A DNA stretch of 64,000 bases. It comes from Octopus vulgaris. Lineage: Eukaryota. The notes below the pieces were generated by a model, which saw only the letters and a list, made by a program, of their open reading frames with translations, did no database searches and was not told the DNA's origin. Below, in pieces: positions 10,174 through 58,637 of the stretch (position 1 is the first letter of the stretch; each line of letters starts with the position of its first letter). The DNA lies in NCBI GenBank assembly GCA_951406725.2, contig OX597837.1:47554001-47618000 (forward strand), given 5' to 3'. Made by a program: the position numbers and the translations under genes.

Positions 10174-10313
10174 AAAGCAGCCAAAATATATCACAAAAAC
10201 TGTTTACTCGGAGTTTCACGTTGCCATTTGTCGGATAGTTTTGTTCTAAACTGTCCAACGAACGGGAACGTGAAACTCTGAGTAACAGTTTTTGTGATAC
10301 ATTTTGGCTGCTT
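10174..10313. mobile_element. Short imperfect palindrome with degenerate minimal hammerheads in both arms
   Basis: Arms 10174-10241 and 10248-10313; + strand AAACTGT-CCAACGA-ACGggaaCGT-GAAA-CTCtGAG-TA-ACAGTTT at 10248-10291; (TA)n follows at 10323. Confidence 0.7.
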
Positions 10314-10627
10314 TTCAATAAAGTATATATATATATATATATATAACAAAAACATATTTAAATGATTATTGCGGAGCATATTCACCATCTATTGATACTT
10401 CAATTACAGCTTCCCATTTGGCAAACGGTCAGACCGTCATTTAAAGATGTTTTTGTTAAATGTTGTTATTGCTTTTGTTGAATAAAATTTGTAGAAAACA
10501 AGCCGCAATAATTATGCACCAACAAAATATATGTTTGTATGCAGATAGATTTTTATATAAGTATATATATATATATATATATATATATATATATATATAT
10601 ATATATATATATATATATATATATATA

Positions 10628-11471
10628 CTAGCAGAATTGCCCGGCGTTGCTCGGGGCTGAATTGCTTGAAAGTACTGTTAATGATTGCACTGAATTATGA
10701 TGATTATTCAGGCAAATATTGATATAAGTTTACGGTGGGAGATAAGTACTTAACGATAAAACGTGTGCCATTGCATTGTTTTGGGGGAACCAAATTTCTA
10801 ATGAGCATTATAGGAGCACCAACTTTAAGTTTGAGAAAGTCTGGTGGTAGTCCGGGGTGCTCAAAGGAATTTAGTACCTCTATTGGATAGTTGATGACGT
10901 CCTCTGGGTCAGGAGTTGTATCGATAGACTGATATACATAGACTTCCCCAGGAATGAGTTTTAGCATTTCATCATTAATATGGTGAACAGTTTTATTCCT
11001 CGGGGCCAGTATAGCCTTTTTGCCAATCCAATCCATATTCTGATAATTAGCTTGTAGATCTGGGAACACTGCATCTCTGAGATCAGAAGGCGTCTTAACA
11101 ATGGTACAAATGGAATCGATGGCAATATTACCATTTTCATCCCCTGGTATTTTGCCTTCGCCAAGTGCAAGGAGGGTGTGAGGAAATGCTGCTGATGTGA
11201 TATTACGTCGCATATGAGCACGCATATTGGTGTGAAGTTTGAGAGTTACTTCCTTTATTTAAAAAAATATGCATTAAAATGGAAAAAAATGATGGTAAAT
11301 TATTTGTAAAATCATAGACTCATCGTAGACGCGCGCTAATACCCAGAAGGGCTCGATATGAATCACGACTATAAGATACCCGGTTTTGGTTAAACTGCAT
11401 TGCAAAATGTGGGAGTAGTTAGGAATCTAAATCGGAGTAGACAGACACACAACCTTTCTTTTATATATAAA
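10628..11471 (-). mobile_element. Internally deleted Helitron carrying a PIF1-family helicase fragment
   Basis: ORF 10704-11225 with NMRAH, AILAPRN, LKLKVGAPIMLIRNL, CNGTR; minus-strand 3' hairpin CCCGagcaacgcCGGG followed by CTAG at 10628-10631. Confidence 0.9.
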
Positions 11472-12150
11472 TATTTTCGTCCTAAAAAACTTTGTATGGA
11501 TTGAATGGTTACCTCTATGGAAATATATACACGCACATTATACATACATGTGTGTATAGATGAATATATAAATACATTTAAATATCTATATACACTTTTG
11601 GGCGATCTTTCTTTTTCTTAGAGATAACTTTAGATCTTATATTCGTCCTAAAAAACTTTGTATGGAGTGAAAGGTTACCTCTATGGAAATATATGCACAC
11701 ACATTATACATACATCTGTGTATAGATGAATATATAAATACATTTAAATATCTATATACACTTTTGGGCGATCTTTCTTTTTCTTAGAGATAACTTTAGA
11801 TCTTATTTTCGTCCTAAAAAACTTTGTATGGAGTGAATGGTTACCTCTATGGAAATATATACACACACGTTATACATACATGTGTGCATAGATGAATATA
11901 TGAATACATTTAAATATCTATATACACTTTTGGGCGATCTTTCTTTTTCTTAGAGATAACTTTAGATCTTATATTCGTCCTAAAAAACTTTGTATGGAGT
12001 GAAAGGTTACTGCTATGGAAATATATACACACACATTATACATACATCTGTGTATAGATGAATATATAAATACATTTAAATATCTATATACACTTTTGGG
12101 CGATCTTTCTGCTACTTGGATATAGGTCTTATATTCGTCGTAAAAAACTT
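11472..12150. repeat. 166-bp tandem repeat, about 4 copies, alternating A/B variants
   Basis: TTCGTCCTAAAAAACTTTG at 11476, 11642, 11808 and 11974, partial at 12134. Confidence 0.95.
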
Positions 12151-12234
12151 TCCTGTCACACACTCACGCACACGCACACACACACACACGCATCCTCACA
12201 CACACACACACACACACACGCACACACACACGTT

Positions 12235-55239: not shown

Positions 55240-56300
55240 AAAATCAAAAACTGCAAATTTTATGCTTCTGCCAATTTATTGTGGAATGTTTGGTTCTTAG
55301 TTCAATGTGACCGCCATTTGCTTTCCTTCCCAGTTTAATCCGTTTATGAAATAAAACGCACGTCTTAACGATTTCTTCCTTTTTCATTTTACTGAACGCT
55401 CGCTCGATGGAAGCCTTCAATGAAGACACACAGTTGTGAGAAGTTGGATATTGCTTCGGCTGCGTCCCATAGCCAAAACTCACACAGATTCAAATCTGGC
55501 GAGTTAGCGGGCCAGATACCTTTAGGAACAAAGATGGCAAATTCCTTCTTCAAAAATTCTTGCACTCTTTTCGAAGAATGTACAGAGTACTGCACGAGCA
55601 TGACTCGATTTGCAAAATAATGCTTTCTAATCCAAGGCAACAAAACCTCTAAGATTTCGAGGTTCTCTGCTATGTTGATTTTATGACCCGCTTCAATAAA
55701 ATGAGGAGGCATCAATTTCCCATCACTTACAACAGCTCCAACGACCATAATGGAAGCCAGATTCTTGTTCTGCATAGCTGAAGGAACTTGAGAGGGTCGT
55801 ACGCTATCACTCGTGAGTTTTGACGGTTTGTAACTTCGTCTATCACGAATTTCTTTTCCTTCGCGAAGACTCGGATGTCTTCGTCACGATGTTTCAAATA
55901 ACTAAAAAGTTTGGGATTTCTTTCAGCTTCAATAGTTTTGGAGCGGATAATTAGGATGTTACAGTGTCTCCCCATGTATGATTTCACATGAAGGTCTTGT
56001 CTCACAGCCCTTGAAATGGTCATTTTACTGATTCCTTGATCTTGAGCCAACTTCGCTATTGATTTTGATGGGTTCGACTCAATCGATCTTTCAAGTTCTG
56101 CTAAGAAGCGAGCTGTGCGTTTTCGGTCATTAGGAAAACTGTGAAGCTTTCTCAGGATATCCTGACTTTTCTTCAAATCGGGTAACAACTCTAAAAGCAA
56201 TAGATTTGACATACTTTGTGGCTCTAACAATCTCCCCAGCACTTCTGCCGGCGCGGAATAATTCGGCAATTACACTTCTACGGTTTTTCGACCGGTGTTT
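55240..56300 (-). mobile_element. maT/DD37D-like Tc1/mariner transposase pseudogene
   Basis: N-terminal HTH, VFA.EKKFVID..NRQNSRV, SIMVVGAVVSDGKLMP, WPANSPDLN..FWLW; frameshifted. Confidence 0.8.
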
Positions 56301-56812
56301 TCGACCACAGGACTGTGGTTTTCGACTTTCGACCACAGGCCTGTTGTGTTCGACCACAGGCTTGTTGTGTTCGACCTCAGACTGTAGTGTTCGACTACAG
56401 GCCTGTTGTGTTCGACCTCAGACTGTAGTGTTCGACTACAGGTCTGTTGTGTTCGACTACAGGCCTGTTGTGTTCGACTCCAGGCCTGTTGTGTTCGACT
56501 ACAGGCCTGTTGTGTTCGACTCCAGGCCTGTTGTGTTCGACCTCAGACTGTAGTGTTCGACTACAGGCCTGTTGTGTTCGACCTCAGACTGTAGTGTTCG
56601 ACTACAGGCCTGTTGTGTTCGACCTCAGACTGTAGTGTTCGACTACAGGTCTGTTGTGTTCGACTACAGGCCTGTTGTGTTCGACTCCAGGCCTGTTGTG
56701 TTCGACTACAGGCCTGTTGTGTTCGACTCCAGGCCTGTTGTGTTCGACCTCAGACTGTAGTGTTCGACTACAGGTCTGTTGTGTTCGACTACAGGACTGT
56801 GGTGTTCGACCT
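56286..56812. repeat. 20/21-bp minisatellite (about 25 units) with higher-order structure
   Basis: Units CCTGTTGTGTTCGACTACAGG, ..CTCCAGG, ..CCTCAGA and CTGTAGTGTTCGACTACAGG; 207-bp superperiod (56406 vs 56613). Confidence 0.95.
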
Positions 56813-57592
56813 AAGGATTAGACATCAACAACAACACTAACAACATCATTAGGTTTTCGACCGTATTTTTTACAAGGGTTAATGTAAGACATTATTGTTA
56901 CATTTGGGAAGAGTCGCGATTAATAAAACCCAAAAACACATTCACAGTTCGTTGTTTGTCTACATTTCTCTTCTTTTTCCCCCTCAAAAATATTAGTTAC
57001 CACCTCAACTTGTGGTCCACCTAATGAGTGTCTATTTTATTAATCATACAACTCTCCCTAAATAAATCAATATTAGTTTCACCTCCAAATTCTTTGCAAA
57101 ACAAACTCAAAATGTCAGTCAACCTTTTTGAAATGTTTTTAAACGATTTCACTCAGTTCAGTGAGCAAACTTTTGTTGTCTTCATTCAAGTTATTGTTTA
57201 GCTGTAGAAAAAAAAGCCCTCGTCTATGGTAAAACTTATGATCATAGACAATCTAACTATGACCACCCCGGGAGTTTTTTGTGATGTGTGTGATGGATAT
57301 TTCTTCACTGAATGTTCGACTCATTCAATCAACTTCCTAAGTGGTTGAGTACTCCGCAGAGAAGTGTACTCTTAACATAATCCCCAGATCGAATCAGCAA
57401 GACACATTTTTATGTGACAAAGTCGCACCTGTTCAATTACTGCTGCAAATTCTACACAGTTTCAATCAACCTAATTTAACTTACAAGACTGAGGTCAACC
57501 TGAAGGCAGGGGAAAGACACCATATAAACACACACACACACATACATATATAAATATGTATATATATATAGAGAGAGGGGGAGGGAGAGAGG

Positions 57593-58637
57593 GCAAATAA
57601 ATAACAAGTATGTCCAGGTATCAATGCATTACGGCCGTTTCTAGCGGCTCCATTTAATCGATCAATGAAAACACTATATCAATTTGAGAGAAACCGTTCT
57701 CCTCATTGCAGACGACCATACAGATTTCCAATATAAATGATAAACCATTTTTTAGCACAATTTATATCAATCAGAGAAACCAAAATAAATACGTTGTTTC
57801 TTTTTGCTATATTTGTGACAGAATGAATTTAGGGAAATATGTATACCTAAAGCCCACAATAGTTTAGAGAGTAGCCACCTGTAATAAGGATATTTATCCT
57901 GGTTTTGATTTTAATATAAGCTATGTACTCCAACTCAGATGACAATTTGATTTACTTATAAATTCATTGTGGGATAGTTTTATCATGACCACCTTAGCCA
58001 TCTGCTTAGGAAAGGTCTTATGAACTTTCTCTTAAATATTAAAGTACCCCATTTTAATGTTTAAGTTTAATTATCAATTCTTTTCCCTTTATATTGTTAT
58101 ATAATTCCTTTCTAAATTTCTAATATATTAAATTGGCTAAGTTATGGTGCGCCTCGTAACCCTAGGTTCTAATTCCCACCCTTAGCTCTTATTTCGATCT
58201 CTTTTGCTTTCCACTTTATTTCCGTTTTATTTGACAATCTAAATATGTGCTAGCCACCCCGTCCTCCCCCCTTATAGTTATAACTTTCTTCCCCATCAGT
58301 CATTCTCTTACTAGCAGCTCTGAAACATATCCTTTTATGTAGATAAAGCAAGATATATGGTCCCAATAAAATAAGGGTCAGGGAGAGTGTGCTAAAAAAA
58401 ATGGTTTATCCTTTATATTGGTAATCTGTATGGTCGTCTGCAATGAGGAGAGCGGTTTCTCTCAAATTGATGTATTTTTCATTGATCGATTAAATGGAGC
58501 CCCTGGAAACGGCCGTAATGTATTGATAGTTGGACATCCTTGTTACTTATTTGCTTTTTATTCACCGAAGTTTGAACTGTGCAGACAATACTGAACTAGC
58601 TTGGTACCTCAATTTAAGTACCTAATTCAACTGAATC
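57593..58637. mobile_element. Inverted-repeat element with HHR-like arms and a spacer of about 630 bp; distant relative of the 13.0/37.8-kb family
   Basis: Arms 57593-57759 and 58388-58554; TGCA-ATGAGGA..GAAA-CGGCCG-TA; ends TTAAGTACCTAATTCAACTGAATC. Confidence 0.8.

Follow-up and report, generated by a model that had tools for sequence, protein, structure and literature searches.

The stretch analysed here (the window) comprises 64,000 nucleotides of Octopus vulgaris contig OX597837.1 (assembly GCA_951406725.2, positions 47,554,001 to 47,618,000), from a 2.8-Gb genome rich in microsatellites. It contains six palindromic insertions, E1 to E6, each built of two inverted arms that carry type I hammerhead ribozymes (HHRs). 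Self-BLAST of the window recovered inverted arms at all six places, with matches at 10174-10314 in E1 (86% identity), 12984-13558 in E2 (86%), 18760-19442 and 19103-19591 in E3 (99 to 100%), 37784-37942 in E4 (93%), 39814-41084 in E5 (95 to 99%), and 57593-58554 in E6 (91%). The six inverted-repeat insertions of an original prediction, made from the letters of this stretch alone, are therefore real, and the start of E1 shifts from 10174 to about 10105, as its left arm includes the tail of its family. The arms of E1, E2, E4, and E6 have diverged by 7 to 14%, and those of E3 and E5 are 99% identical. The elements belong to known kinds, namely, ends of Hydra-type Penelope-like elements (PLEs) and retrozyme-like units, rather than to a new retroposition system, and their paired ends point to twin target-primed reverse transcription as the likely route by which they were inserted.

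A strict pattern scan of the window for type I HHRs yielded 8 motifs, against a mean of 0.15 and a maximum of 3 in 100 local shuffles. Seven of them lie within the six inserts (Table 1), and the remaining one is at 27239 on the minus strand. Helix III is exactly or nearly palindromic and the helix II region is long in 6 of the 7 insert HHRs, which thus resemble the PLE HHR variants described previously (PMC4209133). The other arms, as had been noticed, carry degenerate motifs: the core is decayed in both arms of E1 and E6 and in the right arm of E2, and the left arm of E4 stops short of the cleavage site. No HHR family was found among the 150 of 173 Rfam matches listed for the window; Rfam matches on microsatellites were discarded as spurious miRNAs. 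All six inserts have a minus-strand left arm and a plus-strand right arm, so that the HHR 3' ends face outward. TA repeats adjoin at least one side of E1 to E5, whereas E6, for which a (TA)n neighbor had also been claimed, lies next to (GA)n and (TG)n, 23 bp away from a TA run of 12 bp. No target site duplication (TSD) could be read in the TA flanks by inspection, no formal TSD test being made.

The six inserts fall into five sequence families, at least four having been predicted: F1 (E1), F2/4 (E2 and E4 together), F3 (E3), F5 (E5), and F6 (E6), the last related to F2/4. First-look genome searches returned 759 candidates for F1, 1961 for F2/4, 1753 for F3, 3147 for F5, and 1546 for F6, which are not copy numbers. 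F1, F2/4, and F6 are not tandem; F3 and F5 consist of head-to-tail units of 491 and 564 nt, respectively, with one HHR each. The three linear families are found in line with coding sequence, which bears out the suspected PLE connection. In F2/4, a GIY-YIG domain (Pfam E = 5e-6) is located about 1 kb upstream of the insert sequence, and the reverse transcriptase (RT), linker, endonuclease (EN), and F2/4 end stand in line at locus L279. In the reverse test, the E2/E4 HHR was present downstream on the same strand in 28/30 loci found with the F2/4 endonuclease (two partial matches). F6 has an endonuclease related to that of F2/4 about 2.1 kb upstream, as EN and linker only, with tblastn matches in 2 of 6 long loci (L227 and L228) and motifs recognized by translation in 2 more. 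Hydra-type coding sequence (RT thumb, linker, and EN; decayed) is in line with F1 in 3 of 30 upstream loci.

Among the 150 matches listed, the open reading frames (ORFs) seen for F1, F2/4, and F6 were decayed or truncated, with 579 aa as the longest open frame. A young coding relative, PLE-A, has a 722-aa ORF in a 5.2-kb tandem unit present in more than 50 copies at 100% and carries the motifs RWR (in place of RWK), DKT, CxCx5C, CxxC, and CxH. The last three motifs are visible in F6 translations and partly in those of F2/4 and F1; a CCHH motif was not seen in the translations, as judged by eye. The ends of F1, F2/4, and F6 show a type I HHR pseudo-long terminal repeat (pLTR), an optional tail, an inverted 5'-truncated copy, and a (TA)n target. 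Judged by motifs, these families are EN+ PLEs of the Hydra clade, and on the same sequence evidence E1, E2, E4, and E6 are 5'-truncated ends of coding Hydra-type PLEs. The original prediction had proposed a new circular-RNA system for all six inserts and had named every family being simply the pLTR of an annotated autonomous PLE as a finding that would speak against it. Such a pLTR is what was found for 3 of the 5 families and 4 of the 6 inserts, F3 and F5 being the exceptions, and only E3 and E5 are retrozyme-like. A PLE origin or PLE-type mobilization of the inserts is highly probable.

E3 and E5 are, by sequence, retrozyme-like noncoding HHR tandem units with a putative circular form. Every F3 and F5 unit has a complete type I HHR, and arrays run across the HHR site as many as 5 (F3) or 4 (F5) times; arrays of up to 5 to 6 units exist in the genome. 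The longest ATG-initiated ORFs in the units are 66 aa (F3) and 43 aa (F5), and no LTR is present. The HHR core and helices are intact by sequence, and self-cleavage is predicted; single-motif minimum free energy folds do not yield the active fold, which is expected because HHRs with a palindromic helix III act as dimers (PMC4209133). The insertion footprint of F3 and F5 is identical to that of the coding families, and PLE proteins likely mobilize the two in trans. At locus L470, about 5 or more units of an older F5-like subfamily (about 84% identity) stand in one array, pointing to a long-lived noncoding lineage. At loci L001 to L365, TA runs adjoin dozens of further type I HHR families whose helix II is long, among them a roughly 535-nt tandem with an inverted arm (L335) and another example next to TA (L325).

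We mapped five family references on sampled genome loci and on the window, removing duplicates, 30 hitch-hiker rows, rows at locus edges or shorter than 45 bp, and 127 rows in which a linear-family match failed to extend past the cleavage site. Among the resulting 264 insertions, 155 are single-armed (single-arm counts are approximate, as F2/4 cross-matches F6), 108 have a minus arm followed by a plus arm, one has this arrangement twice in succession, and none has the opposite order. The outward polarity seen in the window thus holds in 109/109 multi-armed insertions. A lone row of plus-minus order (L316:6159-6303) is a low-complexity match and was dropped for not reaching the HHR 3' region. 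TA repeats are found at 222/373 of the 3' flanks compared with a background of 3.8%, an enrichment that had been anticipated, and at 115/126 in F3 and F5 together; at the 5' ends of single arms they are found in 20/155, against the same background.

The arms had been described as ending at different positions, with priming at internal AT-rich sites. Rather than arbitrary sites, each family has two fixed 3' ends about 70 to 106 nt apart, hereafter short and tail, located 42 and 114 nt from the cleavage site in F1, 41 and 140 nt in F2/4, 131 and 237 nt in F3, 201 and 295 nt in F5, and 40 and 129 nt in F6. The 108 pairs comprise 87 short+tail, 1 tail+tail, no short+short, and 20 with an unclassified end; short+tail thus accounts for 87/88 fully classified pairs (binomial P = 3e-25 against 50%, with end windows set post hoc). 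Within the window, E1, E2, E5, and E6 are short+tail, whereas the right end of E3 and the left end of E4 are atypical. The two ends of PLE-A are separated by 73 nt; by eye, 11 of its pairs are clearly short+tail, and three further loci are complex, one of them possibly tail+tail. In weak matches with sides of 20 to 28 nt, contigs of other public runs, none on record as RNA, also have TA joined at the short and tail positions of F3, along with further head-to-head joints. In the only tail+tail pair, of F5 (L236:3837-5829), two unit variants alternate in both arms, as from a dimeric template. By eye, a short motif of the form TTKYTGYTWWTT, a candidate protein-binding site, is shared by the 3' regions of F1, F2/4, F3, F5, and F6, in each of which it is located just upstream of the short end.

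The arms also record the template from which they were copied. In a haplotype comparison of young insertions (29 of F3 and 39 of F5), divergence among units of the same arm is 0.33% in F3 and 0.74% in F5, compared with 0.41% and 0.83% between opposite arms of one insertion and 2.0% and 2.6% between insertions. A variant private to both arms of one pair was found in 6/20 (F3) and 7/24 (F5) testable pairs. The similarity of the arms and these shared private variants indicate that both arms derive from one source. The HHR cleavage site is crossed 65 times in 49 F3 arms and 64 times in 64 F5 arms (several queries favored HHR-containing arms), suggesting that the template is mostly uncleaved or religated; the mean arm length in F3 and F5 is 590 to 620 nt. 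Arm reach was measured from the short site in the 87 short+tail pairs with a threshold of 30 nt. The short arm reaches further in 25/87, the tail arm reaches further in 28/87, and the two are within 30 nt in 34/87, of which 18 belong to F1 and are unreliable, being limited by the reference. In F3 and F5 (n = 45), the corresponding numbers are 13, 21, and 11. The 5' ends of the arms are variable and meet at the center, where, as a raw count, the arms overlap in 62/108 pairs. A cluster of F1 5' ends at the HHR border was discarded as a product of the query and reference.

We favor, with a probability of roughly 0.7, the reading that the inserts are head-to-head insertions of PLE RNA ends and that twin target-primed reverse transcription is their main route of insertion; priming from both ends of a break, which the original prediction had put forward, is the best model. 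The GIY-YIG endonuclease would cut both strands in (TA)n, and one 3'-OH would prime on the RNA at the distal (tail) site while the other would prime at the proximal (short) site, both probably within one dimeric ribonucleoprotein (RNP). Both cDNAs would then run 5'-ward through the uncleaved or religated HHR and halt at largely independent points, and their 3' ends would anneal by a few bases, completing the insert. The near-constant pairing of one short and one long end likely records how the inversions form. Self-priming, proposed for PLE inversions by Arkhipova et al. 2013 (PMC3846280), would instead have the inverted arm copied by fold-back from a single target-primed cDNA, which accounts for the single haplotype per insertion and predicts the excess of near-symmetric centers found in F3 and F5. 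A copy of the tail arm, however, cannot outreach its template in the 5' direction, yet the short arm does so in the 25 pairs counted above (13 of 45 in F3 and F5), which favors twin priming over pure fold-back; moreover, the short arm of a linear family offers no template for the tail. Fold-back is excluded as the sole route and may explain at most a minority of inserts, and as the general explanation it is unlikely. It is very improbable that the palindromes are fold-back artifacts of assembly or MITE-like DNA transposons (MITE, miniature inverted-repeat transposable element). The inserts are indeed palindromic, with nearly identical arms in E3 and E5, but arms are asymmetric, those of the other four inserts are diverged, three families have coding PLE sequence in line, and the contigs of other public runs contain, in weak matches, the TA joints and other head-to-head joints.

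For F3 and F5, the template in twin priming would be a head-to-tail repeat, and here the choice is close. We favor, at about even odds, a circle that the HHR excises and that is copied through as many as five rounds, because multiunit arrays recur in many haplotypes despite 5' truncation. Nearly as plausible, linear multimeric transcripts of arrays, or repeated template jumps, could have supplied the repeats with no circle and with the same PLE-type insertion. The arrays of up to 5 to 6 units exist as sources, F3 arms tend to stop immediately 3' of the cleavage site, in vitro cleavage by PLE-type HHRs is poor (PMC4209133), and 8/9 Xenopus retrozyme dimers were without cleavage (10.64898/2026.07.22.740005). 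Linear copying would nevertheless be shortened in each generation by 5' truncation, so that the persistence of multiunit arrays calls for an amplifying step; rounds within one arm differ by only the 0.33 to 0.74% given above, and animal retrozymes have been shown to form circles (PMC7229834). The fullest version, in which asymmetric twin priming by one RNP is obligate and 491- and 564-nt HHR-excised circles travel as rolling-circle riders, with the RNA coming from one source, is tentative.

Several points weigh against twin priming or against a PLE-driven origin of F3 and F5. The short and tail windows were set after the histogram of ends had been seen, the samples are top-scoring matches, and the first F5 query contained the tail. 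Few active sources or gene conversion could also produce shared haplotypes. F3 stops cluster in the 30 nt 3' of the cleavage site (11/49 arms, 3.8-fold, P = 5e-4), a sign that some templates were cleaved and linear or that the RT stalled, and F5 stops show no enrichment there (P = 0.25). Near-symmetric centers are in excess in the young families (11/45 compared with about 3 expected by permutation), namely, 7/22 in F3 (1.6 expected, P = 0.0002) and 4/23 in F5 (1.4 expected, P = 0.04). The F3 and F5 units had no significant tblastn match to six PLE proteins, and no coding partner was found for either among the loci examined, F3 having had no dedicated parent search. In the older F5-like lineage, 14 loci match the tandem unit only, none with in-line coding sequence. 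The sole sequence link of F3 and F5 to PLE-A is one AT-rich 18-nt match. F5-like sequence in the PLE-A 3' untranslated region (UTR) was rejected as a parent link, as it is an embedded hitch-hiking mini-palindrome; this old F5-like short+tail insert (L316:3069-3292) lies in the TA-rich 3' UTR of every PLE-A copy examined.

Table 1. Arms of the six inserts and a solo fragment in the window
Feature	Position	Strand	Remarks
E1 left arm, F1 (3' end of Hydra-type coding PLE)	10105..10245	-	Decayed HHR and ~72-nt tail
E1 right arm	10248..10323	+	Decayed HHR; short end joined to (TA)11
E2 left arm, F2/4	12984..13265	-	Intact HHR core at 13103; short end joined to (TA)28
E2 right arm, F2/4	13293..13642	+	Decayed HHR; ~95-nt tail
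E3 left arm, part of 491-nt tandem unit F3	18760..19200	-	Intact HHR at 18982; short end at (TA)n
E3 right arm, F3 unit in other permutation	19201..19591	+	Intact HHR at 19221
E4 left arm, F2/4	37784..37852	-	Partial HHR, ends before cleavage site
E4 right arm, F2/4 (3' end of Hydra-type coding PLE)	37871..38098	+	Intact HHR at 37888; tail end joined to (TA)23
E5 left arm, 1.5 rounds of 564-nt unit F5	39814..40662	-	Intact HHRs at 40627 and 40064; short end at TA
E5 right arm, F5	40659..41084	+	Intact HHR at 40740; 94-nt tail end joined to (TA)25
E6 left arm, F6	57593..57875	-	Decayed HHR; short end
E6 right arm, F6	57879..58645	+	3' UTR, decayed HHR, and tail of Hydra-type coding PLE
Solo fragment of F2/4 HHR region	43531..43609	-	Found by self-BLAST

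The atypical right arm of E3 ends at unit position 280 in non-TA DNA, and the E5 arms overlap by 4 nt at the center. A second AT-rich palindrome of 80 bp (37703-37783) abuts the left arm of E4 and may stand in for its missing end. The window further contains a decayed Neptune-like PLE remnant (27040-29200, minus strand) with a DKG motif near 28800; its short minimal HHR is the one at 27239, and it ends in TA. Intact relatives have 884-aa ORFs in 6.2-kb tandems. Neptune-like PLEs found through this remnant were rejected as parents of the six inserts on account of their different short HHR, and F2/4 copies near them are seemingly independent insertions. Other decayed elements at 811-6803 (minus strand), 7450-8538 (plus), 10704-11258 (minus), and 55389-56269 (minus) comprise non-LTR RT elements, a Pif1 helicase fragment (Helitron-like), and a DDE_3 transposase remnant.

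Much of this architecture is already in print: PMC3846280 and PMC8557442 describe pLTRs that stand head to head, with a tail on one of them, insertion at TA, and the lack of readable TSDs. Craig et al. 2021 (PMC8557442) state that Hydra-clade PLEs contain HHRs and target (TA)n, and File S1 of that study includes Hydra-1_Obim from Octopus with a (TA)n preference, which we liken to the present elements by clade motifs and target. The C-terminal GIY-YIG domain, the RWK-like, DKT, CxCx5C, CxxC, and CxH motifs, the pLTR HHR, the (TA)n target, the inverted 5'-truncated copy, the tail often at one end, and TSDs that are indiscernible in microsatellites are all shared with those Hydra PLEs. The octopus elements differ from them in having tails of about 70 to 106 nt rather than 30 to 40 nt, a nearly strict one-end tail (87/88) instead of one described as "often" present, and units of up to 5.2 kb with microsatellite-rich 3' UTRs instead of less than 3 kb. 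In EN+ Penelope elements (PMC3846280), likewise, head-to-head is described as the most frequent arrangement, the tail is optional on one inverted pLTR, and junctions have microhomology; that study infers self-priming, whereas the arm-reach test argues against it as the only route. In vitro, PAc of Poseidon nicks and extends both strands of an AT-rich target, reverse transcription starts at two internal RNA sites that delimit the tail and match the genomic one, HHR cleavage is unneeded, and a dimer is predicted (Frangieh et al. 2024, PMC11167929). The two start sites, AT-rich target, and use of uncleaved RNA are matched here. The in vitro reactions, however, revealed no strand difference in start site, whereas the genomic pairs imply different sites per end, and the available text of that study leaves inversion formation unexplained.

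Metazoan non-LTR retrozymes, for which PLEs have been proposed as the mobilizer (Cervera and de la Pena 2020, PMC7229834; Li, Clavereau and Pollet 2026, 10.64898/2026.07.22.740005), resemble F3 and F5 in being noncoding tandem units with one type I HHR each and a proposed circular intermediate. The unit lengths of F3 and F5 lie within the reported range of 51 to 972 bp and exceed the 170- to 400-nt circles shown experimentally. F3 and F5 differ from those retrozymes in their PLE-style HHR with a long helix II and palindromic helix III, and they carry the full PLE footprint (inversion, short and tail ends, and TA), which is not described in the available text of the retrozyme papers. Among the loci examined, no homology was found between F3 or F5 and any coding PLE pLTR, the derivation given by Li et al. 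2026. An octopus repeat annotation lists recently active Penelope families, and its main text mentions neither hammerheads nor retrozymes (PMC13282606). The strict short/tail rule, the arm-reach argument, and the PLE footprint on retrozyme arrays were not found in the literature searched, which lay outside Repbase, Dfam, Arkhipova 2006, Evgen'ev and Arkhipova 2005, and bioRxiv supplements.

How PLE tandem and inverted structures form is named as an open problem in PMC8557442, and the mobilizer of animal retrozymes has so far been argued from co-occurrence and homology. A nearly strict short/tail rule common to coding PLEs and noncoding HHR repeats, together with the arm-reach counts, yields a specific prediction that the existing in vitro assay of a PLE could address. 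In PLE-A (L316:3697-9000, minus strand), about 2.5 kb of the unit is TA/TG microsatellite-like; the element thereby propagates its own target sites and may account for part of the microsatellite load of the genome. A very young coding family and very young riders share this one genome, and asymmetric twin priming with such riders, if true, would show directly, from genomic sequence, how retrozymes move and by what route Penelope inverted repeats arise.

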